The notes under the pieces are model-generated. The model saw only the letters and a list, made by a program, of their open reading frames with translations, was not told the origin of the DNA and made no database searches. A stretch of 33,542 bases of DNA from an uncultured bacterium (lineage in GTDB: Bacteria > Bacteroidota > Bacteroidia > Sphingobacteriales > Sphingobacteriaceae), in contig CAJBVG010000182.1 of NCBI GenBank assembly GCA_903958995.1, forward strand, positions 1 through 33,542, given 5' to 3'. This document shows positions 1 through 33,542 of the stretch, piece by piece (position 1 is the first letter of the stretch; the number at the start of each line of letters is the position of its first letter). Both the position numbers and the translations under genes were made by a program.

Positions 1-81
1 TAAATCGCGTCGGAGCTAAAATTCAGAGTAGGAATGTGCAAAACTATCGACGCGATAAATCGCGTCGGAGCTAAAATTCAG
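1..81. repeat. REP-like palindromic elements on the left flank of the RAYT gene: one copy truncated by the window edge (1-16) and one full copy (46-71), each followed by TAAAATTCAG
   Basis: ATCGACGCGATAAATCGCGTCGGAGC at 46-71 is the exact reverse complement of the core GCTCCGACGCGATTTATCGCGTCGAT repeated at 725-840. The core is a palindrome with 9-bp arms (CGACGCGAT / ATCGCGTCG). Copies are ~55 nt apart. Confidence 0.85.
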
Positions 82-625
82 GACCTTTTTGGCTCCAGGT
101 TTTAATATTGTTTTGAATATATTTTGAAATTTTAATCTTAGAGATATTGTCTCTTACAATGATATCGTGAAAGTTTTTGCTCCAGTAGAAATACTTATTA
201 GTTTTTCTGATTTCAAATGTTGTTCTACCTTTAAACCACCTGATTACTTTTGAAAGATTATTTGTAAACATCAGATTTTTTAGGCCTGCAATACCTCCAT
301 TTTTATTGAATTCTAAAACATCCATTTTTAGATTTAAATAATTCGGTTTTTTTATTTCAATTAAACCATGTATGTGATTAGGCATTACTACAAATTCATG
401 TAGTACGATAAAAGGAAATTGAATGGGGATTAAATGCCATATTTCATTTACTTTTATCCCCGAGGTAGTCAAAATCATTTTCCCATCTTTTATTTCTCCA
501 AAATAATGCAATTTCAACTCTGTGTTTATTGTGATAAAATAAAAACCAGCGTTTGTGTAATTCCACCATTTAGCCCTCCTCAGTCTTTTACTAATTCTTA
601 ATAGATACTTACTAAAATAATCCAT
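71..625 (-). CDS. REP-associated tyrosine transposase (RAYT; IS200/IS605-like Y1 transposase family)
   Basis: 184-aa ORF with HUH motif (MPNHIHGLIE) and a C-terminal catalytic-Tyr context (SKYIQNNIKTW). Its size is typical of Y1 transposases. It is flanked by inverted palindromic REPs. The last ~10 nt of the CDS (TAAAATTCAG on the + strand) are part of the repeated unit. Confidence 0.85.
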   Translation of the reverse strand: MDYFSKYLLRISKRLRRAKWWNYTNAGFYFITINTELKLHYFGEIKDGKMILTTSGIKVNEIWHLIPIQFPFIVLHEFVVMPNHIHGLIEIKKPNYLNLKMDVLEFNKNGGIAGLKNLMFTNNLSKVIRWFKGRTTFEIRKTNKYFYWSKNFHDIIVRDNISKIKISKYIQNNIKTWSQKGPEF

Positions 626-5084: not shown

Positions 5085-5148
5085 TTTGCGAATTAGCGAA
5101 CTAGCGAAATGACGAATTTGCAAATTAGCGAACTAGCGAAACGTCGAA
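5085..5148. repeat. 8-nt periodic array, NNNGCGAA x 8
   Basis: tttgcgaa|ttagcgaa|ctagcgaa|atgacgaa|tttgcaaa|ttagcgaa|ctagcgaa|acgtcgaa. It contains a 19-nt direct repeat (5091-5109 = 5123-5141). The same word family recurs at 14729-14795. Confidence 0.9.
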
Positions 5149-5154
5149 GGGTAA

Positions 5155-5184
5155 AATAAAAAAAGCCCCGAGTTTCCTCGAGGC
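5155..5184 (-). terminator. Rho-independent terminator of sucD
   Basis: On the minus strand: GCCTCGAG-gaaa-CTCGGGGC (8 bp with one G-U) followed by a run of about 10 U. Confidence 0.8.
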
Positions 5185-5197
5185 CGTATAATTTCAC

Positions 5198-5299
5198 ATT
5201 AACGTATTAATATTAACATATTAACCCATTAACATATTAACACATTAACATATTAACACATTAACATATTAACACATTAACATATTAACACATTAAATC
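5198..5299. repeat. 8-nt tandem array ATTAACAY (about 13 units; 16-nt higher-order alternation ATTAACAT/ATTAACAC)
   Basis: Units read directly from 5198. The final unit, attaaatc, contains the sucD stop codon (5293-5295). Confidence 0.95.
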
Positions 5300-6226: not shown

Positions 6227-6314
6227 AAATGCGTAAATGTGCAGATGCGAAAATGCGTAGATTCATTAATTTGCACATTTACGCATTTGCACATTTACGC
6301 ATCTGCACATTTTC
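6227..6314. repeat. Inverted pair of 8-nt tandem arrays (AAATGYGY x 4, spacer, then the reverse-complement word RCRCATTT x 4-5)
   Basis: aaatgcgt|aaatgtgc|agatgcga|aaatgcgt|agattcat|taatttgc|acatttac|gcatttgc|acatttac|gcatctgc|acattttc, in a single 8-nt phase throughout. It occupies the divergent sucD/truA spacer. Confidence 0.9.
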
Positions 6315-7081: not shown

Positions 7082-8830
7082 ATGAGCAGTGTTAGCGGAA
7101 AAGCAATAGATACCAAAATTTTACGTCGTATTTACCAATACCTACAACCGTACAAAAAAGTTTTTTGGATGAGTGTTGGATTAACGGTACTACTTGCTAT
7201 TGTTGCTCCTATTCGTCCCTACCTTATTCAATACACCATCGATAATTTCATTTTAGCCGATAATGCCAATGGCTTATTTACTATGGTGATGATTATGTTT
7301 GGATTACTTGCTTTTCAAACCATCATTCAATATTACCATACGGTACTTACCAATTGGCTAGGGCAGTCGGCCATACTCGATTTGCGTAAGTTGGTGTTCT
7401 CGCATTTATTAAGTTTACGTTTAAAATATTTTGACAATACTCCCATCGGGACTTTAGTAACTCGTGCGGTTTCTGATTTAGAAACTATTGCTGATGTGTT
7501 TTCGGAAGGTCTAATTGTTATCATAGGCGACATCCTTCAAATAGTAGTAATTGTTGGGGTGATGATGTATATCGATTGGCGTTTAACCTTAATTAGTTTA
7601 GCGACAATTCCTTTTCTACTAATTGCTACTTATATTTTTAAAGAGCGTACTAAAAAAGCGTTTCAAGATGTGCGTATTGAAGTGGCTAAACTGAATACTT
7701 TTTTGCAAGAGCACATTAGTGGCATGCGTATCATCCAACTTTTCGTTCGCGAAAAAGCAGAGATGGAAAAATTCAAAAACATTAATCGCCGTCACCGAAT
7801 TGCACACATAAAATCGGTTTGGTATTACTCTATATTTTTCCCTGTAGTAGAATTAATGTCGGCTACGAGTATAGGTTTACTAGTATGGTACGGTTCTAAG
7901 GAAGTGCTTGATGGTAGTTTGAGTTTAGGGGTTATTGTTTCCTTTATTATGTACATCAACATGCTATTTCGCCCTATTCGCGAACTCGCAGATAAGTTCA
8001 ATACTTTACAAATGGGTATGGTAAGTTCGGAGCGAATTTTTAGTGTGTTAGATACACAAGAACAAACTCCTAATCATGGAACAATTACTGATGTTCCAGT
8101 GCAAGGTAAAATTACATTCGACAAGGTTCGCTTTGCATATACTGAAGATCATTATGTATTGAAAAATATTTCCTTCGAATTACAGGCGGGTAAAACCCTT
8201 GCTATTGTTGGGGCTACAGGGGCTGGGAAATCTTCGATCATCAATTTACTGAATCGCTTTTATGAAATTAACGAGGGTGAAATTCGTGTAGATGATGTAG
8301 ATATTAAAAAATATGAACTCTCTTTTTTGCGTTCTAAAATTGCCACCGTTTTGCAAGATGTGTTTTTATTCTCGGATACCATTGCCGAAAATATTCGTTT
8401 AAAAAACACCGATATTTCTATTGATAAAATTATTGAAGCAGCAAAAGAAGTAGGTGCACATGATTTCATTATGAACCTCCCAGGAGGCTATGATTATAAT
8501 GTGATGGAACGAGGCGCAACGCTCTCTGTAGGGCAAGCGCAATTAATTTCTTTCATCAGAGCTTTAGTATTCAACCCAAGTATTTTGGTACTCGACGAAG
8601 CCACCTCTTCAGTAGATACCGAAAGTGAATTGCTCATTCAATCGGCTATACAAAAATTAATGCAAGGACGTACTTCTATTGTTATTGCACATCGATTATC
8701 TACTATACAAAACGCAGATCAGATTATGGTGCTAGACCACGGGGAAATTGTGGAGATGGGGACGCATCAGGAGCTTCTTCATTTGAATGGTGCGTATAAG
8801 AGGCTGTATGAACTTCAATACCAGAATTAA
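7082..8830 (+). CDS. ABC exporter, fused permease/ATPase (MsbA/lipid-exporter-like)
   Basis: Six-TM N-terminal half, Walker A GATGAGKSS, signature LSVGQAQ, Walker B ILVLDEATS. Confidence 0.92.
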   Translation: MSSVSGKAIDTKILRRIYQYLQPYKKVFWMSVGLTVLLAIVAPIRPYLIQYTIDNFILADNANGLFTMVMIMFGLLAFQTIIQYYHTVLTNWLGQSAILDLRKLVFSHLLSLRLKYFDNTPIGTLVTRAVSDLETIADVFSEGLIVIIGDILQIVVIVGVMMYIDWRLTLISLATIPFLLIATYIFKERTKKAFQDVRIEVAKLNTFLQEHISGMRIIQLFVREKAEMEKFKNINRRHRIAHIKSVWYYSIFFPVVELMSATSIGLLVWYGSKEVLDGSLSLGVIVSFIMYINMLFRPIRELADKFNTLQMGMVSSERIFSVLDTQEQTPNHGTITDVPVQGKITFDKVRFAYTEDHYVLKNISFELQAGKTLAIVGATGAGKSSIINLLNRFYEINEGEIRVDDVDIKKYELSFLRSKIATVLQDVFLFSDTIAENIRLKNTDISIDKIIEAAKEVGAHDFIMNLPGGYDYNVMERGATLSVGQAQLISFIRALVFNPSILVLDEATSSVDTESELLIQSAIQKLMQGRTSIVIAHRLSTIQNADQIMVLDHGEIVEMGTHQELLHLNGAYKRLYELQYQN

Positions 8831-8865
8831 TTCTAAATTCTAAATTCTAAGTTCTAAATTCTAAG
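8831..8865. repeat. 7-nt tandem array TTCTAAR x 5
   Basis: ttctaaa|ttctaaa|ttctaag|ttctaaa|ttctaag begins on the base after the ABC-exporter stop codon. Confidence 0.95.
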
Positions 8866-8870
8866 TTGAA

Positions 8871-9205
8871 CCTTAACTTCGCTGCGCTACGTTCGGGGAC
8901 CAATCATTTTACATTTCATAGCAGACTTGCAAAACCCCATCTCCCGATATCTATCGGGATTCGCTACGCTACCCTGCGTGGCGCAGACAGGGTTCGGGGA
9001 CCAATCATTTATCATCAGACTTGCAAAACCCCTCAACTTCGCTGCGCTACGTTCGGGGACCAATCATTTTATTCATTTATTTAAAAGTAGAAAGGGGATA
9101 TTTGAACTATGTTCAAATATCCCCTTTCTACTTTTATTTTATTTTTTTCTGAAGCTATATATAATTTATCGGTCCCCGAACGTAGCGTAGCGAAGTTGAG
9201 GGGCG
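8871..9205. repeat. Composite of GC-rich dispersed-repeat modules (direct copies plus one inverted copy), MITE-like
   Basis: AACTTCGCTGCGCTACGTTCGGGGACCAATCATTTT occurs at 8875-8910 and 9035-9070. CAGACTTGCAAAACCCC occurs at 8922-8938 and 9017-9033. There is a partial GGTTCGGGGACCAATCATTT at 8991-9010. The inverted copy at 9171-9203 matches 9029-9061 at 32/33 positions. Confidence 0.85.
9083..9146. terminator. Bidirectional terminator: perfect 25-bp stem with a 3-nt loop, followed by a T-rich tail
   Basis: AAAAGTAGAAAGGGGATATTTGAAC-tat-GTTCAAATATCCCCTTTCTACTTTT (9083-9135), then ATTTTATTTTTTT. It lies between convergent genes. Confidence 0.8.
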
Positions 9206-9210
9206 GTTAA

Positions 9211-10534: not shown

Positions 10535-10601
10535 GTGCAGATGCGAAGATGTGCAGATGTGCAAATTGAATCTGCACATTTGCATATTTACGCATTTGCA
10601 C
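10535..10601. repeat. Inverted pair of 8-nt tandem arrays (GYGMARAT x 4, tga, ATYTRCRY x 4)
   Basis: gtgcagat|gcgaagat|gtgcagat|gtgcaaat|tga|atctgcac|atttgcat|atttacgc|atttgcac. Same word family as 6227-6314. It ends 6 nt before the stop of the 10608 gene. Confidence 0.9.
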
Positions 10602-10607
10602 ATCTAT

Positions 10608-11093: not shown

Positions 11094-11096
11094 CTT

Positions 11097-11187
11097 GAGT
11101 TATGAGTTATGAATTGTGAGTTGTGAGTTGAATTATGAATTGTAAATTTTAACTCACAACTCATAATTCACAATTTACAATTAGTAT
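11097..11187. repeat. 7-nt phase-locked array (13 units) with inverted arms (GAGTTRT... / ...CTCAYAA)
   Basis: gagttat|gagttat|gaattgt|gagttgt|gagttga|attatga|attgtaa|attttaa|ctcacaa|ctcataa|ttcacaa|tttacaa|ttagtat. It fills the whole spacer between the start at 11093 and the eno stop at 11188. Confidence 0.95.
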
Positions 11188-12482: not shown

Positions 12483-12610
12483 TAAATTTTAAATTGTAAA
12501 TTTTAAATTGTAATTTATTGTATTAACATATTAATCTAAGTTGTAAGTTATTTCATTAACATATTATCCTATTAACATATTAACATATTATCCTATTAAC
12601 ATATTATCCA
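12483..12610. repeat. Compound array: TAAATTK x 5 (7 nt), AAGTTRT x 2, then ATTAACAT/ATTATCCT x 7 (8 nt)
   Basis: 7-nt units run from 12483 to 12517. There is an ATTAACAT|ATTAATCT pair at 12522-12537. 8-nt units run from 12555 to 12610, and the last unit contains the carA stop (12604-12606). Confidence 0.9.
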
Positions 12611-14728: not shown

Positions 14729-14795
14729 TCGAATTTGCGAATTTGCGAACTTGCAAATTTGCGAAGGGTCGAATTGTAGAAGGGTCGAATTGTAG
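14729..14795. repeat. 8-nt phase-locked array exactly filling the stop-to-stop spacer of a convergent gene pair
   Basis: tcgaattt|gcgaattt|gcgaactt|gcaaattt|gcgaaggg|tcgaattg|tagaaggg|tcgaattg|tag. It includes a 16-nt duplication and belongs to the NNNGCGAA family seen at 5085-5148. Confidence 0.95.
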
Positions 14796-16863: not shown

Positions 16864-17010
16864 AATTAGGAATTAGGAATTAGGAATTAGGAATTTGCAC
16901 TATAGAAAAAGGACTATGGACATCGGACAAGGGACAATGGACAAAGTAAGATATCCAGTCACCAGTCACTAGTCACCAGTTACCGCTAAATAGTCACCAG
17001 TCACCATAAA
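16864..17010. repeat. 21-unit heptamer array in a single phase with drifting words (AATTAGG x 4, then ACWNNGG x 5, then CCAGTCA-type x 7)
   Basis: I read the units one by one from 16864 to 17010 without any phase slip. Confidence 0.95.
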
Positions 17011-17022
17011 TTTGTACATTTG
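17007..17022 (+). promoter_or_regulatory. Two adjacent TAnnTTTG boxes (TAAATTTG, TACATTTG) upstream of the RluA-family gene
   Basis: The second box ends 4 nt before ATG 17027, the same geometry as at truA. Confidence 0.4.
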
Positions 17023-17026
17023 CGCT

Positions 17027-17692
17027 ATGAACATATTCTACGAGGATAATCACCTCATTGCTATAAACAAACCAGCGGGTACTCTTGTGCAGGTGGATAA
17101 TACTGGAGATACATCTTTAGAGATTTTGGTAAAGGATTACATCAAGGTACAATACAACAAACCGGGTGAAGTGTTTTTAGGGGTAATACATCGCATCGAT
17201 CGTCCCGTTAGTGGATTGGTATTGATGGCGAGAACGAGTAAAGCTTTAGAGCGTGTTAACAAATCGTTTAAAGATCGTGAAGTTCAGAAAACCTATTTAG
17301 CAGTAGTTAGAAATAAACCTGCGTTAGAAGAAGGCACACTTGTTCATTGGTTAACAAGAGATACAGTGAAAGGCGTTACCAAAGCACATAACAAAGAAGT
17401 CAACGGTTCCCAACGTGCCGAACTTAGCTATAAATTATTGTCGGAAATAAATGGTTTTTATCTATTAGAAATAAAACCGATAACAGGAAGAACGCATCAA
17501 ATTCGCGTACAACTTTCTAGCATGAATTGCCCCATTGTAGGTGATAATAAATATGGATATCCTAGAGCCAATAAAGATCGTAGCATTTGCTTGCATTCTT
17601 ACAAACTAGCTTTCAACCATCCCGTTACCAAAGAACGCATGGAACTACAAGCGGATTTACCGGAAGATGCTTTTTGGCAGAAATTTAGGTAA
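17027..17692 (+). CDS. RluA-family pseudouridine synthase (no S4 domain)
   Basis: The HRIDRPVSGLVL catalytic-Asp motif and ...GRTHQIRVQL. Start set at the first ATG (17027); the tracked ORF begins at TTG. Confidence 0.9.
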   Translation: MNIFYEDNHLIAINKPAGTLVQVDNTGDTSLEILVKDYIKVQYNKPGEVFLGVIHRIDRPVSGLVLMARTSKALERVNKSFKDREVQKTYLAVVRNKPALEEGTLVHWLTRDTVKGVTKAHNKEVNGSQRAELSYKLLSEINGFYLLEIKPITGRTHQIRVQLSSMNCPIVGDNKYGYPRANKDRSICLHSYKLAFNHPVTKERMELQADLPEDAFWQKFR

Positions 17693-17765
17693 CTGGTGAC
17701 TGGTAGCTGGTAACTGGTAACTGATAAACAAATATTTCGAGTTACGAACTACGAGTTACGAGGTA
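17693..17765. repeat. 7-nt phase-locked array exactly filling a stop-to-stop spacer (CTGGTRA x 5, then TTACGAG-type x 4)
   Basis: ctggtga|ctggtag|ctggtaa|ctggtaa|ctgataa|acaaata|tttcgag|ttacgaa|ctacgag|ttacgag|gta. The first words are the reverse complement of the array upstream of the same gene. Confidence 0.95.
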
Positions 17766-18965
17766 CTACTGAGAGAATTCCGTACTCAACTTAAACCTCA
17801 CAATTCTACCATTCCCTGTATCGCAGATGTATAATGTGCTTCCGAAATAGGCAACAGCAGTTGGTCTGCGGAATTGTTTCGGACCAGAACCTGTACCACC
17901 AAATGAAACGTTAATATTTTTCTTTGATGAATAGCCTGCTGGTGGTGGAACTCCTTCTAAACCGGTTAAGGTAAATAAGTACACCGAATCTTTTGTAGCA
18001 TCGGTTACGAAAATATAATTACTTCCATCGCCTGCAATAGTTATCCCTCTTGGTTCTGTAAACTTATTTGGAGTGTACATAAATCCATCTGCTTTTGTGG
18101 TGTCTTGTCCGGCTAAGCTAGTATTTAATGAATATGATGAACCAAATTCTGAAGAAACAAAGCTGATGTATTGAGTTTTTATTGATGTACTACTCGATAA
18201 AGAAGTGAAAAGAAAATCGCCTCCTTGTTTTACAATATTACTTTGTGGTGCTTTCGCTAAAGTTGAAATGGCAAATGGTGATTTAAAATAATCGGAAATC
18301 AATCCTTGCTCTGTGCTTACACTTACGTTACTTACGAACTTATCGTTTTGGTTAAATACTAAAACTGAATTATCAGGACCGCCAATTTGCGATGAGCTGT
18401 TCGATGGACCAGAACGTGTGATGTAATAACTATTATCGGCCATCATGCTGATTCCATTGATGTGTACAGCAGAATCGGAAGTGGTGAACGATGTTTTAAA
18501 ATAGAAAGGATGAACAACTGTTTTTGAGATGATCGCATTGTTTAATCCGTAACCATTACTCGTAATTAATTTTAAACGATACAAGGCATCGAGTGTATAA
18601 TTCTTACCATTGATGACAGTATCTTTTGTCCCAAGTACTAATAATTCCAAGCTTCTATCCATGGCAATGGCTTTTGCATTTGGAATGCTCTTCTCTCCTA
18701 CTTTTCTGCCCGACTGATCGAATGAAATAACTTTACCTGCATTCTTATCGGCAATGTAAATTAACTCGTCATAACCAATCGTAATGTCGACTGGTGAAGC
18801 AGTAATTTTAATATCAGGAAGAATTGGTACGAATGCGATTGGTTTTTCATCGTAGTTTGGAACGTCGATGAAACCTAAATTAGTTTTATCACCAAATGGT
18901 TTTTCACAAGAGGATAATACACTTGATAGAATAACTAATCCGAATAAATATTTTCTAATCATCAT
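17766..18965 (-). CDS. Lipoprotein with C-terminal NHL-like beta-propeller repeats
   Basis: Lipobox LSSVLSSC. Repeats PRGITIAGDGSNYIFVTDATKDSVYLF and RPTAVAYFGSTLYICDTGNGRIVRF. The start lies 1 nt from the upstream stop codon. Confidence 0.75.
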   Translation of the reverse strand: MMIRKYLFGLVILSSVLSSCEKPFGDKTNLGFIDVPNYDEKPIAFVPILPDIKITASPVDITIGYDELIYIADKNAGKVISFDQSGRKVGEKSIPNAKAIAMDRSLELLVLGTKDTVINGKNYTLDALYRLKLITSNGYGLNNAIISKTVVHPFYFKTSFTTSDSAVHINGISMMADNSYYITRSGPSNSSSQIGGPDNSVLVFNQNDKFVSNVSVSTEQGLISDYFKSPFAISTLAKAPQSNIVKQGGDFLFTSLSSSTSIKTQYISFVSSEFGSSYSLNTSLAGQDTTKADGFMYTPNKFTEPRGITIAGDGSNYIFVTDATKDSVYLFTLTGLEGVPPPAGYSSKKNINVSFGGTGSGPKQFRRPTAVAYFGSTLYICDTGNGRIVRFKLSTEFSQ

Positions 18966-19981: not shown

Positions 19982-20098
19982 TGTATTAAGTACAATGTAT
20001 TATGTATTATGTATTATTATTTTTCATTGTACATTGTACTTAATACATTGTACAGAACATTAACATATTATCCCATTAACATATTAACATATTAATTA
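19982..20098. repeat. Compound array: 7-nt words (TGTATTA x 4 / ACATTGT x 3, partly inverted), then 8-nt ATTAACAT/ATTATCCC x 5
   Basis: 7-nt units run from 19982 to 20058 and 8-nt units from 20059 to 20098. The last unit, attaatta, contains the stop codon of the 20096 gene. GTACAATGTATTA (19990-20002) pairs with TAATACATTGTAC (20041-20053). Confidence 0.9.
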
Positions 20099-22924: not shown

Positions 22925-22988
22925 TCTCTGTGTCTCTGTGCCTCTGTGATTAGGAATACTTAAACACAGAGACACAATGACACAGTTT
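22925..22988. repeat. Inverted pair of 8-nt arrays (YCTCTGTG x 3, 16-nt spacer, CACARNNN x 3)
   Basis: tctctgtg|tctctgtg|cctctgtg|attaggaatacttaaa|cacagaga|cacaatga|cacagttt. The spacer is exactly two units long, so phase is kept. TGTGTCTCTGTG pairs with CACAGAGACACA. Confidence 0.9.
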
Positions 22989-22993
22989 GAAAT

Positions 22994-23365
22994 TCAATTA
23001 ATACATCTTGTTATTCCATCTTTTAATAATGGGACATTAAAATTAATTAACAAACCAATTTTTTTATTTGATAATTTCAAATAGGACAAAAGCTGTGCTT
23101 TGTGAACAGGTAAAACTAATTCAACAGCTTTTAATTCTATTAATACTTGCTCATTGACAAGCACATCAATAAAAAAACATTTTTCTAATTCAACTCCTTT
23201 GTAAACAACCTTTACTGGAGCATTCTCTCTACATTCAAATCCTTTAAGTCTCAACTCTTGAATCAAACATTTTTGATATACTGATTCTAAAAGTCCAGGT
23301 CCTAAATTTTTATGAACCTCAAAACTTGCTGACACTACAGCTTTTGTAATTTCATTATAATCCAT
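22994..23365 (-). CDS. GxxExxY protein (PD-(D/E)XK-like small protein family)
   Basis: 123 aa with the eponymous motif GPGLLESVY, followed by the ...DVLVNEQVLIELKAV... core. Confidence 0.85.
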   Translation of the reverse strand: MDYNEITKAVVSASFEVHKNLGPGLLESVYQKCLIQELRLKGFECRENAPVKVVYKGVELEKCFFIDVLVNEQVLIELKAVELVLPVHKAQLLSYLKLSNKKIGLLINFNVPLLKDGITRCIN

Positions 23366-23423: not shown

Positions 23424-23471
23424 CCGGTCCCTGAGCCCTGCCCGCGCAGGCGGGGGAGCCGAAGGGCCCGG
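23424..23471. repeat. GC-rich hairpin (family C) carrying an internal 18-nt GC mini-hairpin
   Basis: CCGGTCCCTGAGC[CCTGCCCGCGCAGGCGGG]GGAGCCGAAGGGCCCGG. Without the bracketed part it matches GGTCCCTGAGCGGAGCCGAAGGGACC at 25970-25995. It ends 2 nt from the stop codon at 23474. Confidence 0.85.
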
Positions 23472-23473
23472 TA

Positions 23474-25969: not shown

Positions 25970-25995
25970 GGTCCCTGAGCGGAGCCGAAGGGACC
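25970..25995. repeat. GC-rich hairpin, family C (GGTCCCT-gagcggagccga-AGGGACC)
   Basis: 7-bp stem, 5 nt 3' of the stop at 26001. Related to 23424-23471. Confidence 0.8.
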
Positions 25996-26000
25996 TATTA

Positions 26001-28112
26001 CTATTTCGTCACTACAAAACGTCCATTATTCAACACACCTGCAGAAGCAGAAGAAATGCTGTAAATGTATGTTCCTTGTGATAAAGAAGAGATATCAATT
26101 TTAACTGTTCCTGTAGTTTCAGTTAATGTTGTAGTATTTACAACACGACCGAAAATATCATAAACAGTAAGCATTAAATCTGCAGAATTAACTGGCATGA
26201 TGTAATCTAAGTTCAAATTAGTAGTTGCAGGGTTTGGATAAACAACTGCTTTACCTTTATTAACGAATGATGATGTAATACCTAAAGCGGTATAAGTATC
26301 AAAATCATTATTGTTTCTTGGTAATAATTTCAAGTTACTGAATGAGTAAGTCATGATACCAGTTAACGAATTCATGCGATCACCTTTTTTAACAACGATG
26401 ATATCGATACCTGCATTTGGTGTCCATGAGCTATCATTCACATAAGAAACATTTAATGAAGAGAATGAAGTACTAGTTTGACGACCAGCAATGACACGGC
26501 AACCAGCACCAGCATCAGTAGTATCTTTTCCTACACGGTATTCAGCGAAATTACTTGGATCATCAGCATTTTGATTGATAATATATAAACCATTTGTTGG
26601 CATAAATTTAACAACCATACCTTCATAAGGCTCAGAACCTGTTGGGCTTTGGAAACGGAATGAATCTGCTTCAACTACTACTGGAGTAATTACACCTGAT
26701 CCATTTTTAGTAACTGAAGTAACACTTTCTAAACGTGTTAATCCGAAGTATTCTTTTACAGTACCAGTGATGGTAACTTTTTCGCCTGTTAATAATGTAG
26801 ATAAACCAGTTCCATTTGCTACGAAAATACCAGCATATGTACCTTGGTTTTCTTGTTGAATGTGAACATAACCTAAATCAGAAACTGAAGATGTAACCAC
26901 ACCAGTAACTGTTACTGCTTGATCAACAAATCCTGAGTTACCAGATTTGAATGGAGAATATTGAACATCATAAATAGTTAAACCATTATTTCTAACTACA
27001 TAGAATTTTGGATCTTCTGCAGGAACATTAGGAATACGACTAGTTAAATTTGCAGGAGATGCATCTTTAGCCATGATGTAATATTTCACTAAAGAACCAT
27101 CTGCTTGAGCAGCGATATTAGCTGTATATAAATTTCCATTTGCACTCATTGGAACAGCAATGTAACTATTGCTAGTTGCTCCAACAGCATAATATAATAC
27201 AGCAGTATCAACACCTTCTTGATCGGTGATGTTAGCTGAAATCATTACTGAGTTAGTGTTATTAGGCACAACGAAATTTCTTGTAATACCTGAAATTGAA
27301 GGTGCAGAAGCTCCCCAAACTACATCAGCAGGTTTAATAGGATGTAACTCATAACCTCTATTATTTTTAGAGTGTAATAAAACACCTTTGATAGAGTTGA
27401 TAAAGTCACCTACTACAGGAGGTACAAATGTTCCACCTGTTGCTGGTAAACGGAATGATGAGAAACGATCTGAAATATTCATTTTGTTTCCTGAAGCATC
27501 AATTACGTTGAAACTTACACGAGCACCATTAGAGAAATAATCAACTGAAGAAACTGTTAAATTACGTAGTTCTACATATTGACCTTCATACTGCTCACCA
27601 GTAGTAAGGATGTTATTTCTATTGATGTCGTTTAATTCTGCAGCAGTAACTAATTTTGCTTTAACAGTAATTCCACCACCTAATAATATAATAGGTGTAG
27701 CTGGATTTGTATTGTTAGGTACGAATTCAGTTTCACCTTGGAATTCTTCCACGTGACCAGTAATTTCTACAGAGTCACCTTCTACAAGTGATAAGATACC
27801 TGTACCACCATCACCCGGAGTTGTAGAACCTGGGAATGGTTGATAAACGTCAATTCCTGAGAAAGCCGAACCATCATTGGTTTGAATCCAAATTTGTTTA
27901 CCACCAACAATAGTAGATAAACCAGCATCCATAATTACAACACCACGAATACGAATAGTATCTGTAATGGCAAATGAAGACGCATCATTTCCTGCCGCTA
28001 AATCTTGTTGCGACACCGTTTGTACTTCTGTGATAGTTTTTAAAGGATATTGTGCATTTGCAGCAATAGCCATCACTAAGAAGCATGCTAATGAAAGTAA
28101 TTTTTTGTTCAT
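26001..28112 (-). CDS. Secreted T9SS substrate with duplicated OB-fold-like modules of the type found N-terminal to ExeM/NucH extracellular nucleases
   Basis: Signal peptide ...AIAANAQ. Module 1 is ITEVQ...IRIRGVVI...IWIQTNDG..SGIDVY...LVEGDSVEITGHVEEFQGETEF. Module 2 is IYDVQYS...VTVTGVVTS...VHIQQEN..AGIFVAN...LLTGEKVTITGTVKEYFGLTRL. T9SS tail VVYPNPATTNLNL...GTYIYSI. Confidence 0.65.
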   Translation of the reverse strand: MNKKLLSLACFLVMAIAANAQYPLKTITEVQTVSQQDLAAGNDASSFAITDTIRIRGVVIMDAGLSTIVGGKQIWIQTNDGSAFSGIDVYQPFPGSTTPGDGGTGILSLVEGDSVEITGHVEEFQGETEFVPNNTNPATPIILLGGGITVKAKLVTAAELNDINRNNILTTGEQYEGQYVELRNLTVSSVDYFSNGARVSFNVIDASGNKMNISDRFSSFRLPATGGTFVPPVVGDFINSIKGVLLHSKNNRGYELHPIKPADVVWGASAPSISGITRNFVVPNNTNSVMISANITDQEGVDTAVLYYAVGATSNSYIAVPMSANGNLYTANIAAQADGSLVKYYIMAKDASPANLTSRIPNVPAEDPKFYVVRNNGLTIYDVQYSPFKSGNSGFVDQAVTVTGVVTSSVSDLGYVHIQQENQGTYAGIFVANGTGLSTLLTGEKVTITGTVKEYFGLTRLESVTSVTKNGSGVITPVVVEADSFRFQSPTGSEPYEGMVVKFMPTNGLYIINQNADDPSNFAEYRVGKDTTDAGAGCRVIAGRQTSTSFSSLNVSYVNDSSWTPNAGIDIIVVKKGDRMNSLTGIMTYSFSNLKLLPRNNNDFDTYTALGITSSFVNKGKAVVYPNPATTNLNLDYIMPVNSADLMLTVYDIFGRVVNTTTLTETTGTVKIDISSLSQGTYIYSISSASAGVLNNGRFVVTK

Positions 28113-28151
28113 TTTATTTTTGTTTGTTTTTCTTTTGTTCGTTTTTTTTTC

Positions 28152-28276
28152 GTCGGAGTGTCCCTGTCTGCAACAGGCAGGCTCGCTTCGACATTAATCT
28201 TGTGTTCGTCGAAGCGTCCTCGCTTCGACATTAATTCATATAATCTGTCGGAGTGTCCTCACTCCGACGAACGGTT
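28152..28276. repeat. Cluster of three family-B REP-like hairpins
   Basis: The first is GTCGGAGTG..[CCTGTCTGCAACAGGCAGG]..CTCGCTTCGAC (28152-28192). The second is GTCGAAGCG-tcct-CGCTTCGAC (28208-28229, an inverted copy of 947-968). The third is GTCGGAGTG-tcct-CACTCCGAC + GAACGGTT (28247-28276). The first two are each followed by ATTAAT. Confidence 0.85.
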
Positions 28277-28284
28277 CAATAATT

Positions 28285-31696: not shown

Positions 31697-31716
31697 TATT
31701 TAGGTAAAATAGCTAA

Positions 31717-31724
31717 CAAATGTA
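31717..31724 (-). promoter_or_regulatory. Candidate -7 box (TACATTTG on the minus strand) for the EEP-led operon
   Basis: Matches TAnnTTTG, 20 nt upstream of ATG 31696. Confidence 0.35.
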
Positions 31725-31778
31725 AAAATATTATTCCGCTCCTTTATTAAGGAAATATTAACATTTTTAGGGAATTAA

Positions 31779-32000
31779 CTAAAATTTAGCACAAGGTATT
31801 GGGCGACGGTTGTATTTGGAATGCGAGCCAAATTTTAAGCCTCCGTTAAATTCGTAAATGACTGATATTTCGTGACTTCCAGAAGTTTTTTGGAATAATC
31901 CAGAAGTAGTTATATCATATGAATAGCCGATTCTTAATGGTTTATCTTCCAAAGCGTAACCTAAAAGGATTACAAAGGCATCGTTATTAACATTTTTCAA
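31779..32000 (-). pseudogene. C-terminal remnant of a PorP/SprF-family T9SS membrane protein
   Basis: The 73 codons end ...GYSYDITTSGL...SGSHEISVIYEF...RRPIPCAKF, which matches my recollection of the family C-terminus. There is no ATG (TTG only). The roughly 250 N-terminal residues are missing because the gpsA stop lies 20 nt upstream. Confidence 0.55.
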
Positions 32001-32019
32001 GGTGAAACTACTTATACAA

Positions 32020-33027: not shown

Positions 33028-33053
33028 GTCCTTTTGTTTAGTTGAACAAATAT

Positions 33054-33133
33054 ATAATAATATGTTAATGGGATAATATGTTAATGTGTTAATGGGATAA
33101 TATGTTAATGTGCCAATGAGCTAATGTGCTAAT
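33054..33133. repeat. 8-nt array NNNNTAAT x 10 (ATGTTAAT/GGGATAAT), the reverse complement of the ATTAACAT/ATTATCCC family
   Basis: ataataat|atgttaat|gggataat|atgttaat|gtgttaat|gggataat|atgttaat|gtgccaat|gagctaat|gtgctaat. Confidence 0.95.
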
Positions 33134-33258
33134 GCTTGATTTGGTGAAAAGGATGTTTAAATGGGATGATAGGCAAGTATTTAAGTATGATTTGAGTCAT
33201 AAACAAACCAATCACATTATTTTCAACTTTGTGTCATCAAACAAAACAATAACAAATT

Positions 33259-33542
33259 ATGAGAAAAATATTCACGCTAATTGCGATGTCCTTAGTGATT
33301 GCTTCTTGTGGAGGAAGCAGTAACCCAACTGAAGCCACAGAAAACGAATCAAACAATGAATCATCAGAAAATAAAGATGTTTCTGACTATGATCCAAAAC
33401 GTGGTGAAGGTAAATTTTCAAGTGTAGAATTGTCAGCAACTTTAGACCAAACAATGGCTACTGATGGTGAAGCCGTGTATGGTGTAAAATGTTCATCATG
33501 CCATAAAACTACAGCTGAAAAGCTAGTAGGACCAGGTTGGGA
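33259..33542 (+). CDS. c-type cytochrome lipoprotein (3' end beyond the window)
   Basis: Lipobox LVIASC and heme-binding motif CSSCH. The ORF is open to the window edge. Confidence 0.75.
   Translation, partial: MRKIFTLIAMSLVIASCGGSSNPTEATENESNNESSENKDVSDYDPKRGEGKFSSVELSATLDQTMATDGEAVYGVKCSSCHKTTAEKLVGPGW

Follow-up and report, generated by a model that had tools for sequence, protein, structure and literature searches.

The ATTAACAY arrays in the window, that is, the whole 33,542-nt stretch of DNA analyzed here, are probably a dispersed octanucleotide satellite that arose by slippage, spread by copying from locus to locus, and is largely tolerated under a selective filter. In our best reading they represent one of several recurrent 7/8-nt SSR families in the non-essential intergenic DNA of a Sphingobacteriales-like lineage, for which the nearest named SucD proteins were those of Solitalea and Pedobacter. 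The arrays belong to the known long-unit SSR and heptamer-repeat class of cyanobacteria, Xanthomonas and Beggiatoaceae and are not a new system. The census covered the 33.5-kb window and related loci; in a single scan of the genome_contigs collection, the closest enolase reached only 80% identity.

The window contained 29 ATTAACAY matches compared with 6.61 ± 2.74 expected from 100 dinucleotide-preserving shuffles, the largest of which gave 14. Analysis with TRF placed arrays of period 8 (4.6-12.6 copies) at the four sites named in an earlier sequence-only reading. The sucD array (about 5198..5296, minus strand; 12.6 copies, about 12 octamer units) displayed the ATTAACAT/ATTAACAC alternation proposed in that reading, with a 90% match when read as a 16-mer; on the sense (minus) strand ATGTTAAT alternated with GTGTTAAT, and the 16-nt higher-order period with its 90% match extended over about 5195-5296. 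This array occupied the space from the sucD stop codon (5293-5295, within the terminal unit) to a canonical intrinsic terminator identified by a terminator scan (5164..5185, minus strand; GGCCTCGAGGAAACTCGGGGCT followed by a T-run), which lay outside and downstream of the array. The carA array (12555..12606, minus strand; 6.5 copies of ATTAACAT/ATTATCCT) had a 24-nt higher-order period with a 100% match, ATTAACAT ATTATCCT ATTAACAT; the carA stop codon (12604-12606) was the TAA of its last unit, and an isolated 1.9-unit copy of the same repeat was found at 12522-12536. The TonB-dependent receptor array (20059..20095, minus strand; 4.6 copies, one ATTATCCC unit) was a single copy of a 32-nt module, in sense ATGTTAAT ATGTTAAT GGGATAAT ATGTTAAT, and adjoined the receptor stop codon (20096-20098). 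The ATTATCCY-type variant expected at the carA and receptor arrays was thus present, as ATTATCCT and ATTATCCC units, and the proposed contact with stop codons also held, since those of sucD, carA and the receptor gene were located inside a terminal, partly degenerate unit (TAA) or adjoined the array.

The fourth array, near 33,058, was in reverse-complement orientation and upstream of gpsA, as claimed. It extended from about 33054 to 33134 on the plus strand, 26 nt before the gpsA start in the spacer that separates gpsA from a divergent cytochrome c gene, and comprised 9.6 copies of ATGTTAAT/GGGATAAT with GTGTTAAT units, which shaded into GTGCCAAT/GAGCTAAT/GTGCTAAT. Its inner end touched TATATTTG (33047..33054, minus strand), a match to the Bacteroidetes -7 promoter consensus TAnnTTTG (PMC6847099) and, judged by its sequence, a putative promoter element. 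A motif check of the window found TAnnTTTG beside arrays and never within ATTAACAY units. All ATTAACAY-family units of this genome shared an invariant ATTA...C/TAAT part. The arrays were not assembly artefacts, as the same structure was present in independent ENA, NCBI, JGI and Logan assemblies.

Treating the ATTAACAY family as a stand-alone feature proved too narrow, because at least six recurrent unit families were identified in the same genome. TRF reported 23 array segments of period 7 or 8 in the window, of which the four ATTAACAY arrays were a minority; an automatic non-overlapping count gave 21 (10 of period 7, 11 of period 8, other periods near zero). Of the 20 intergenic gaps that measured 40 nt or more, 12 carried arrays of 7- or 8-nt units, many of them different, and these arrays made up 25.8% of the intergenic DNA of the window. 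Of 936 array bases, 907 were intergenic and 29 lay in coding sequence.

Several of these arrays filled their spacers or ended against neighboring features. Upstream of the SDR gene, a GCGAATTA/GCGAACTA/GCGAAACG octamer array of a different unit family (5085..5148) had a 32-nt higher-order period, and its unit CGAATTAG was also present on an unrelated contig. The divergent sucD/truA spacer, where gene starts were corrected using the gene calls of relatives, carried AAATGCGA and CATTTACG/ATTTGCAC octamer arrays (6227..6312), and an (AATTCTA)5 heptamer array (8829..8864) began inside the stop codon of an ABC transporter gene. Inverted pairs were identified directly 3' of the DUF4293 stop codon (octamers, GTGCAGAT ... 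TGCACATT, 10535..10603; fold z -5.73) and over the whole eno-DUF4293 spacer (heptamers, TGAGTTG ... AACTCAC, 11096..11182; fold z -5.93). A TAAATTG/TAAATTT heptamer array (12483..12513) reached as far as the eno start codon and took up what was left of the carA-eno spacer, and CGAATTTG and CGAAGGGT octamer arrays spanned the whole convergent panB/M23-T9SS spacer (14730..14795). A divergent spacer at 16864..17006 contained AATTAGG, GGACAAG and CCAGTCA heptamer arrays, the last of which ended against a TAAATTTG box, while GGTAACT and CGAGTTA heptamer arrays filled a convergent spacer (17688..17766) as an imperfect inverted pair (fold z -4.37). The rest of the receptor spacer was taken up by TGTATTA and CATTGTA heptamer arrays (19982..20054) that formed a second hairpin. 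Finally, (TCTCTGTG)3 and an inverted CACAGAGA-type partner (22925..22985; fold z -7.60) were located between the PD-(D/E)XK gene and the receptor gene.

The sequence-only reading had taken the shared ATTATCCY variant as an argument against independent slippage at each locus, and this is supported by the likeness of non-orthologous arrays and by the exact recurrence of the 32-nt module. The module was found at 8 independent loci (nine were listed, one of them the ortholog of the window in L127), compared with a chance expectation of about 1e-13. Non-orthologous arrays of the window differed from each other by 0.29-0.78 mismatches per unit, whereas the window arrays differed from their orthologs in L215, L214 and L208 by 2.53-2.83 mismatches per unit; these within- and between-species distances rest on few loci. 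As the window arrays are closer to each other than to their orthologs, they appear to have been homogenized between loci. Such homogenization is not universal, since the two arrays compared in the L208/L215 genome were unlike (3.42). The arrays thus combine a 16- or 24-nt higher-order period of diverged monomers with a within-genome likeness greater than that between orthologs (few loci), as in satellites.

We compared orthologous loci in strains at 97-99.9% identity and in species at about 91%, 95%, 93% and 90%. The unit number of the gpsA array was identical in five strains (97-99.9% identity), unit number was likewise unchanged in L001, and the receptor array was conserved unit by unit in L127 (about 91% identity). 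In the same relative, the TGTATTA array beside the receptor gene carried a 9-nt insert of extra TGTATTA sequence, and the spacer at 17693-17765 was wholly replaced by other arrays. The carA-eno spacer showed one 33-nt block indel between two close strains, and in L208 a homologous (AATTTAC)4 occupied the place of the TAAATTG/TAAATTT array. After sucD, where the window has 11-12 ATGTTAAT-type units, L206 had GTGTGCTC-type arrays before the orthologous terminator hairpin, L208 had a single TAATGCGTTAAT and L210-L212 had none. In the eno-DUF4293 spacer, L206 and L208 kept an inverted array pair built from other units. An array was present at the gpsA site across four species despite a changed upstream neighbor, and the -7 box upstream of gpsA was conserved in all four; in L213, L214 and L215 the units had drifted to ATCAGCAT and ACTAGCAT/AATCACAC, with loss of TTAA. 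The persistence of the gpsA-site array and of the eno-DUF4293 inverted pair could reflect selection for presence or structure.

Array density was 0.69/kb in the window compared with 0.114/kb in 80 Bacteroidota enolase loci, and it dropped with distance from the window (0.63, 0.57, 0.57, 0.24 and 0.05 per kb). Period 7 accounted for 68 and period 8 for 31 of the 171 arrays at the enolase loci, where inverted array pairs recurred; the excess of 7/8-nt arrays was restricted to these two periods and patchy across Bacteroidota, with Pedobacter and Spirosoma species among the array-rich members. The vocabulary of other units was common to other contigs (88 matches compared with 39.9 ± 9.1 for shuffled units). 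A metagenome scan identified ATTAACAY-type arrays at at least 120 loci, with 3 to 39 units per array; some matches were giant-virus MAG contigs. The reported association with gene ends extended to this set, in which none of 119 deduplicated arrays was intragenic and ORFs entering an array in either orientation usually stopped at its first in-frame TAA, as judged from crude ORF calls on contigs of many different source organisms. ATTAACAY was rejected as a globally special unit. In the viral_contigs collection, composition-matched control octamers gave 29, at least 120 and at least 119 loci compared with 17 for ATTAACAY, the control octamer ATACATAY being a poor control owing to its internal 4-nt period. 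As control octamers were equally or more frequent, the wide occurrence of ATTAACAY says little.

As RNA, the arrays in the AUGUUAAU sense were predicted to form G·U-rich hairpins. One alternative is that they are functional RNA elements with a REP-like role: (AUGUUAAU)n hairpins in 3' UTRs would protect the mRNA end or aid termination, the GGGAUAAU variant unit would set the loop, and inverted pairs elsewhere would serve the same job. We consider this unlikely. The sucD array folded at -34.2 kcal/mol (z -9.9) as sense RNA compared with -1.8 kcal/mol (z -0.3) as antisense, and the receptor module gave a 14-bp stem with an AUGGGA loop supplied by the variant unit (-8.6 kcal/mol). DNA folding was weak: the ATGTTAAT strand reached -1.5 kcal/mol (z -0.13) in the module and -9.2 (z -4.7) in the sucD array, and the opposite strand -1.0 (z +0.14) and -4.2 (z -2.05), respectively; a DNA hairpin or cruciform was accordingly rejected. 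Inverted-pair spacers folded with z -4 to -7.6, and three species retained such a pair, built from different units in each. The window arrays located behind genes, three in number, were all in sense orientation, L210 carried a sense array behind one stop codon and an inverted copy ahead of the following start codon, and arrays near 3' ends showed a trend to sense (29:18, P = 0.14). However, between co-directional genes 22 arrays were sense and 25 antisense (P = 0.77; 27:27 in a first pass), which lends no support to an obligatory RNA hairpin. Folding of the small modules was weak, at -8.6 to -9.6 kcal/mol with z near -2, neither carA nor gpsA lay in a region of significant structure (z -0.77 and -1.31; z +0.07 for 33050-33140), and a scan of the whole window against Rfam 15 at gathering thresholds gave no match. 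The sucD array has its own canonical terminator behind it, and classical terminators were present elsewhere in the window. Arrays were also located in promoter regions and directly before start codons, there in the non-folding orientation: next to start codons 6 were sense and 23 antisense (P = 0.0023), and it was only at this position that the hairpin- and AUG-bearing orientation was avoided. This bias fits the reported need of the Bacteroidetes initiation region for little structure and few AUGs.

The balanced orientation between co-directional genes is what a double-stranded site predicts, and the sequence-only reading had raised the TTAA core as a possible protein target. On this view the arrays would be multimeric DNA sites for a lineage-specific protein, such as a nucleoid-associated protein or a regulator, that recognizes the ATTA/TTAA octamer. 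The invariant ATTA...C/TAAT part, the limited and recurrent unit vocabulary and the position of the gpsA array directly upstream of a -7 box conserved in four species are consistent with this idea, which we nevertheless regard as improbable. Orthologous gpsA arrays lacked TTAA and differed at about 2.5 of 8 positions, yet the array persisted; at least six unrelated unit families behaved alike, which would call for many proteins; the flanking genes had no common function; no candidate protein emerged; and control octamers were equally common. We rejected the idea that a protein or transposase targets the TTAA core because orthologous arrays lack TTAA, and the absence of visible TIRs and the equal frequency of control octamers point the same way. 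Stop codons in register with the unit TAA and the same 32-nt module at unrelated loci would also be expected if the arrays were traces or cargo of a TTAA/TAAT-targeting mobile element that inserts at stop codons, perhaps via the IS200-like Y1 transposase gene at 71-625 of the window. We hold this origin to be very improbable. No terminal inverted repeats (read by eye in the printed flanks), fixed length or adjacent transposase were seen; with 3 to 39 units per array and orthologs without TTAA, the arrays do not resemble MITEs or TTAA elements. Unit drift and in-place replacement of arrays were seen at orthologous sites. The Y1 gene is bordered by GC-rich palindromes that are quite unlike the arrays, and the arrays lack DNA hairpins of the Y1-transposase type; a TTAA target duplication would be indistinguishable from the repeat itself. 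Least credible is a role as contingency (phase-variation) repeats, in which a change in copy number would turn expression of the neighboring genes on or off. Tandem repeats did lie beside gene ends and promoters, and the 33-nt block indel in the carA-eno spacer is a length change between close strains. Phase variation was rejected because unit number was invariant across strains (five strains at gpsA, L001, and the 91%-identity L127 at the receptor); in addition, the neighbors were housekeeping genes (sucD, carA, eno and gpsA) and most arrays were downstream of genes. The arrays are not hypermutable switches.

Three further identities were also set aside. TTATCCC resembled the DnaA box TTATCCACA by eye at only the first 6 of 9 positions (TTATCC), GC skew was monotonic across the window, and the unit was carried by dozens of loci. 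The arrays are not themselves intrinsic terminators, as their stems consist of A-U and G-U pairs without a U-run and the terminator lies outside (5185-5164). Finally, the units were contiguous and had no spacers, which is unlike a CRISPR array.

A more active process is also conceivable, but we give it little credence: templated copying or gene conversion would seed and homogenize a library of units that are used as strand-dependent RNA modules. Under such a scheme the AUGUUAAU sense would yield G·U hairpins bridging spacers or capping 3' ends, and the AUUAACAU sense would provide an unstructured, SD-free leader, so that gene ends and starts would be built from modules. If true, the long-unexplained heptamer and octamer repeats of bacteria would gain both a role and a means of spread.

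The class to which we assign the arrays has been described in several lineages. LSSR5-11 are long SSRs with 5-11-nt units (Mrazek et al. 2007, as summarized in PMC4679880 and PMC4692102), and many bacteria have more heptamer repeats than SSRs of any other class, with an origin by polymerase slippage proposed. Heptamer repeats are intergenic, near ORF ends, sometimes paired in inverted orientation, and present in some Bacteroidetes. Across the 33.5 kb and related loci, our arrays were head-to-tail 7/8-nt tandems confined to non-coding DNA, with periods 7 and 8 dominant. As summarized, LSSR5-11 are likewise head-to-tail repeats of 7-8-nt units that are intergenic, occur as many arrays in non-pathogens, peak at 7 nt and have been ascribed to polymerase slippage and not to a particular role in the cell. 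Here, in contrast, octamers were as common as heptamers and arrays reached 26% of intergenic DNA; Bacteroidota are not among the ten genomes richest in 5-11-nt repeats named in the summary, and a higher-order module and inter-locus homogenization are not part of the description given there. The GGGAATC and GGGGA(C/T)T heptamers of Xanthomonas and Nostoc (PMC4692102), and the cyanobacterial STRR, are also unit families dispersed intergenically. The Xanthomonas/Nostoc arrays lie 0-50 bp from ORF ends, in Xanthomonas often as inverted pairs, at sites conserved among relatives while length and sequence vary (PMC4692102). They differ in being G-rich 7-mers capable of forming G-quadruplexes, whereas the unit here is an AT-rich 8-mer without G-runs in another phylum, where several unrelated unit families coexist. 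STRR have heptanucleotide units of set sequences and are found in heterocystous cyanobacteria; the present unit, 8 nt long, AT-rich and hosted by Bacteroidota, is not a member.

The TAACTGA repeats of Beggiatoaceae, Cyanobacteria and a few Bacteroidetes (PMC4679880) are similarly intergenic and patchy, with stop codons in the unit, some directly after stops and many directly before starts. They mostly have 2-6 copies in a single orientation a few nt upstream of starts, for which a translational regulator was suggested (PMC4679880); the arrays here were longer, lay on both sides of genes and had no overall orientation preference. The 16-/24-nt higher-order period, the genome-specific variant shared across loci and the greater difference between orthologs than between paralogs recall the 'library' model of eukaryotic satellites, except that these arrays span 30-100 bp between the genes of a compact bacterial genome. 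Dispersed satellite families are rare in prokaryotes according to the survey 'Satellites in the prokaryote world' (PMC6749651). REP/BIME sequences with RAYT are also short, abundant intergenic repeats, often at 3' ends and capable of forming RNA stem-loops. REPs, however, are imperfect DNA palindromes of fixed length, whereas ATTAACAY arrays are direct tandems of variable number (3-39 units) with weak DNA folds and G·U pairing on one RNA strand. A RAYT-like gene with flanking palindromes was observed in the same window.

We favor a model in which the arrays would arise from short proto-repeats and vary in length through replication slippage, with 7-8 nt as the favored size. Loops of this size escape MutS-type mismatch repair, and a polymerase-footprint reason for the favored unit size has been proposed in the literature. 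Unit variants recur among loci and were probably copied by short-patch recombination or gene conversion; through such copying the arrays of one genome would evolve in concert and share the ATTATCCY/GGGATAAT module. The recombination step and the mismatch-repair argument are ones that we infer. The pattern of array ends suggests that arrays expand until they meet something selected, be it the end of a coding region, the stem of a terminator or a -7 promoter box, so that they abut or supply TAA stop codons. Selection would act as a filter only, and the bias at start codons may reflect the removal of the leader-side orientation that carries AUG and G·U hairpins. Several observations run contrary to this model. 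The stability of the arrays in five strains and in a 91% relative exceeds what a freely slipping repeat suggests, and the predicted sense-strand fold (z -9.9), with the variant unit as the module loop, is striking. The lasting gpsA-site array and eno-DUF4293 inverted pair, and the unlike arrays of the L208/L215 genome, also count against it. Nothing in the data calls for a dedicated sequence-specific function.

Intergenic heptamer and octamer repeats (STRR, LSSR5-11, and those of Xanthomonas/Nostoc and Beggiatoa) have been recorded in bacteria for decades without agreement on their origin and function. Our evidence does not require a new mechanism; what is new are the details, namely the 32-nt module at 8 loci, inter-locus homogenization, stable copy number and loss of TTAA in orthologs. 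Array density in this lineage is unusually high, at a quarter of the intergenic DNA, and a comparative series of strains and species is at hand, some of them on contigs of 2.8-3.2 Mb. This series reveals replacement, drift and persistence of arrays at orthologous sites, together with a module across loci and an orientation filter at start codons. Taken together, these features make the lineage a good system for measuring the birth, spread and filtering of repeats.

Tandem Repeats Finder (TRF) located ATTAACAY arrays at four sites in the window: 5198-5296 (period 8, 12.6 copies), 12555-12606 (6.5 copies, also called at a 24-nt period with 100% match), 20059-20095 (4.6 copies) and, in reverse complement, 33058-33134 (9.6 copies). 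Read as a 16-mer, the array at 5198-5296 gave a 90% match and consisted of alternating ATTAACAT and ATTAACAC. The sequence-only reading had reported arrays of this octamer at four loci, and both the recurrence and the coordinates were borne out, with 29 ATTAACAY matches in the window compared with 6.6±2.7 in shuffled sequences (highest shuffle, 14). Pfam analysis identified the neighbouring genes as sucD, carA, a TonB-dependent receptor gene and gpsA. Three arrays were said to abut or include stop codons; these stops indeed lie within the terminal unit or flush against it. The same arrays were unchanged in independent assemblies and are therefore not artefacts.

The same TRF run revealed dozens more period-7 and period-8 arrays with units unrelated to ATTAACAY, including GCGAATTA, AAATGCGA, AATTCTA, GTGCAGAT, TGAGTTG, TAAATTG, CGAATTTG, AATTAGG, CCAGTCA, GGTAACT, TGTATTA and TCTCTGTG. 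Using gene starts corrected from relatives, 7/8-nt arrays were present in 12 of the 20 window spacers of at least 40 nt and made up 25.8% of intergenic DNA, while 29 of 936 array bases were coding. Inspection of all intergenic gaps revealed several spacers composed of arrays from coding end to coding end, with inverted pairs frequent. The sucD array separates the stop codon from a canonical terminator, the gpsA array and the CCAGTCA array each run up to a TAnnTTTG box, and open reading frames entering arrays in either orientation usually end at the first in-frame TAA. The arrays thus fill any DNA between real signals. TAnnTTTG, the Bacteroidetes -7 promoter motif, was itself scarce in the window (30 matches versus 46.9±6.7 in shuffles, with none of 100 shuffles below 30), a scarcity that fits avoidance of spurious intragenic promoters. 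An RluA-type pseudouridine synthase gene (17012-17692) is bracketed by an inverted repeat of array units, with the CCAGTCA array upstream (16955-17006) and the reverse-complement form, CTGGTGA/CTGGTAA, immediately after the gene (17693-17727); this same unit, as TGGTAAC/GGTAACT, occurs three times in the relative L206. A T-rich tract of ~50 nt showing weak 15-nt periodicity (TTTTTTGTTCGTTTT) was found at 28101-28153, at the 5' end of a T9SS-tail gene (26001-28112).

A metagenome scan for three ATTAACAY units, with a variant unit permitted, returned at least 120 matches. Among the matches listed, variant-bearing arrays oriented as ATGTTAAT shared one recurring module, ATGTTAAT ATGTTAAT GGGATAAT ATGTTAAT; the stop codon often coincided with the start of the module, which often continued into arrays of other units also present in the window. 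The exact 32-mer was found at nine listed loci, or eight independent sites without L127, the ortholog of the window. Window units other than ATTAACAT gave 88 matches on the other contigs listed, compared with 39.9±9.1 for shuffled units, and the exact matches clustered on contigs of 31-37% GC; the lineage therefore has a limited unit vocabulary that its loci share. In the viral collection, three ATTAACAY units matched 17 loci (many from giant-virus MAGs), compared with 29, at least 120 and at least 119 loci for composition-matched control octamers. ATTAACAY is thus not special in general, and since control octamers are as common or commoner, the large metagenome match count is no evidence of a dedicated system. 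AT-rich octamer arrays (ATTAACAY, AATTCAAY, TAACTAAY, ATACATAY) were common in these IMG/VR loci (L217-L461), many on contigs labelled giant-virus MAGs. Viral L218 and metagenomic L152 (both 14761 nt) matched at identical coordinates, and viral L227 and metagenomic L130 are both 202258 nt.

Related genomes carried arrays at orthologous sites, either identical, drifted or replaced. The gpsA array had an equal unit number in five strains (97-99.9% identity), the sole difference in L001 was a block indel of 33 nt at another place in the carA-eno spacer, and the receptor array was identical unit for unit in L127 (~91% identity). The convergent spacer at 17693-17765 (73 nt) was wholly replaced in L127 by ATTTGAAC-type arrays and a REP-like hairpin, with the flanking genes aligning normally. 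Syntenic loci with SucD identities of 95%, 95%, 93% and 90% were compared. At the 3' end of sucD, the 11-12 units of the window correspond to GTGTGCTC-type and TCTAAAA arrays preceding the same terminator in L206, to a lone TAATGCGTTAAT in L208 and to no array in more distant species. The L208 carA-eno spacer combined a homologous AATTTAC array with diverged octamers (TAGATAAT, TAGCCAAT, GTGCCAAT, TAGCTAAT), and the eno-DUF4293 spacer contained an inverted array pair in 3 of 3 array-rich species, with different units in each. Along the species series, array density went from 0.63 per kb down to 0.05. Four species have an octamer array next to a conserved TATATTTG...CAACTAAAC motif upstream of gpsA, including where the gene further upstream differs; the units are ATTAACAY, ATCAGCAT or ACTAGCAT/AATCACAC. 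Non-orthologous arrays within the window's genome differed by 0.29-0.78 mismatches per unit, compared with 2.5-2.8 between window arrays and their orthologs in 88-89% species, which supports the earlier proposal of copying between loci. Taken together, these sequence comparisons indicate concerted evolution. In the 93% relative L210 (7185-7340), a stop codon is followed immediately by a GTGTTAAT-type array, and an inverted ATTAACAC-type copy lies immediately 5' of the ATG of the following gene; pairing between these two arrays could span the entire spacer.

The best-supported account has four parts: slippage would give rise to arrays and their turnover, unit variants would be copied from locus to locus, arrays would expand as far as selected boundaries, and selection would filter their orientation beside start codons. 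The suggestion that the TTAA core is a protein or transposase target was not supported, as TTAA is dispensable in orthologous arrays and those upstream of gpsA persist with other units. Another explanation is that the arrays are functional RNA hairpins. RNA in the ATGTTAAT sense self-pairs through G·U wobble, with the module forming a 14-bp stem whose loop falls at the border of the variant unit; the sucD array RNA folded at -34.2 kcal/mol (z -9.9) compared with -1.8 (z -0.3) for the opposite strand, and DNA folding of the arrays was weak. This strand-specific fold, the stable copy number and the long persistence of arrays at some sites count against pure neutrality, and the hairpin reading is therefore retained, as an unlikely one. 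A required hairpin would predict the sense orientation between co-directional genes, but among 119 deduplicated arrays from the matches listed, 22 were sense and 25 antisense, so the requirement was not borne out.

None of these 119 arrays was intragenic, and sense arrays, which are both hairpin-forming and AUG-bearing, were avoided at start codons (6:23, P = 0.0023); at 3' ends there was only a trend (29 sense:18 antisense, P = 0.14). The start-codon avoidance fits the account of Bacteroidetes initiation in PMC6847099: the mRNAs lack Shine-Dalgarno sequences, secondary structure around the start codon tunes initiation, and one section of the paper deals with a shortage of other AUG trinucleotides there.

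GC-rich REP-like hairpins form a second repeat system with no relation to the arrays. They occupy spacers of the AT-rich window at 946-981, 8870-9210, 23430-23473, 25975-26000 and 28150-28284 (for example CTTCGCTGCGCTACGTTCGGGGACCAATCATTT, with three copies in direct and one in inverted orientation, GGTCCCTGAGC...GAAGGGACC and GTCGAAGCG...CGCTTCGAC), and similar elements occur in L206 and L208 spacers. An IS200-like Y1 transposase domain is encoded at 71-625 (minus strand), and copies of the palindrome CTCCGACGCGATTTATCGCGTCGAT lie on either side of this gene, among them a 43-nt unit in 2.7 copies at 724-841; the arrangement of 1-981 resembles a REP-associated tyrosine transposase (RAYT) with REP elements. 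Between gpsA and the T9SS-tail genes, the related loci L213-L216 carry genes for a 1500-1700-aa PKD/CHU_C protein and PorP/SprF, the window has a 323-nt spacer alone (31697-32019), and strain L203 retains a 73-aa PorP/SprF fragment; the loss from the window looks like a recent deletion. The window has a small PD-(D/E)XK_3 gene (22994-23365). In relatives, small 23S_rRNA_IVP/bAvd-like genes occupy intergenic positions that differ by species (L206: 6236-6490, 15517-15885; L208: 6890-7252, 15194-15559), so such genes are apparently gained and lost while their neighbours are conserved. The partial gene at the window's right end (33259-33542) encodes a cytochrome c. Because this gene heads a nitrous-oxide reductase cluster in the related contig L202 (1-9769; nosZ-type propeller, NosL, NosD, ABC components), the lineage probably reduces N2O.

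Type IX secretion (T9SS) C-terminal sorting domains and the TonB-dependent receptor identify the host as a member of the Bacteroidota. The closest named SucD proteins are from Solitalea (88-89%) and Pedobacter (87-88%), and no close relative's genome was found among reference species. Background array density was 0.114/kb across 80 Bacteroidota enolase loci (1.3 Mb), compared with 0.69/kb in the window; periods 7 (68/171) and 8 (31/171) were dominant in this background, and a similar excess with inverted pairs was found in scattered taxa (a Lentimicrobiaceae MAG, Sphingobacteriales MAGs, Spirosoma, Pedobacter chinensis and Mucilaginibacter). Heptanucleotide SSRs are the commonest class in many bacterial genomes, with polymerase slippage suggested as their origin, according to the passages of PMC4679880 and PMC4692102 that summarise Mrazek 2007. 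TAACTGA heptamers are described from Beggiatoaceae, cyanobacteria and five Bacteroidetes (PMC4679880). In Xanthomonas and Nostoc, GGGAATC-type heptamers occupy intergenic sites near ORF ends, sometimes in inverted-repeat pairs, and keep the same flanking genes in related species while varying in length and sequence (PMC4692102). The window arrays are like these heptamers, and both belong to an already described kind of repeat; the ATTAACAY arrays are real and form a lineage-specific member of the intergenic long-unit SSRs, a known class.
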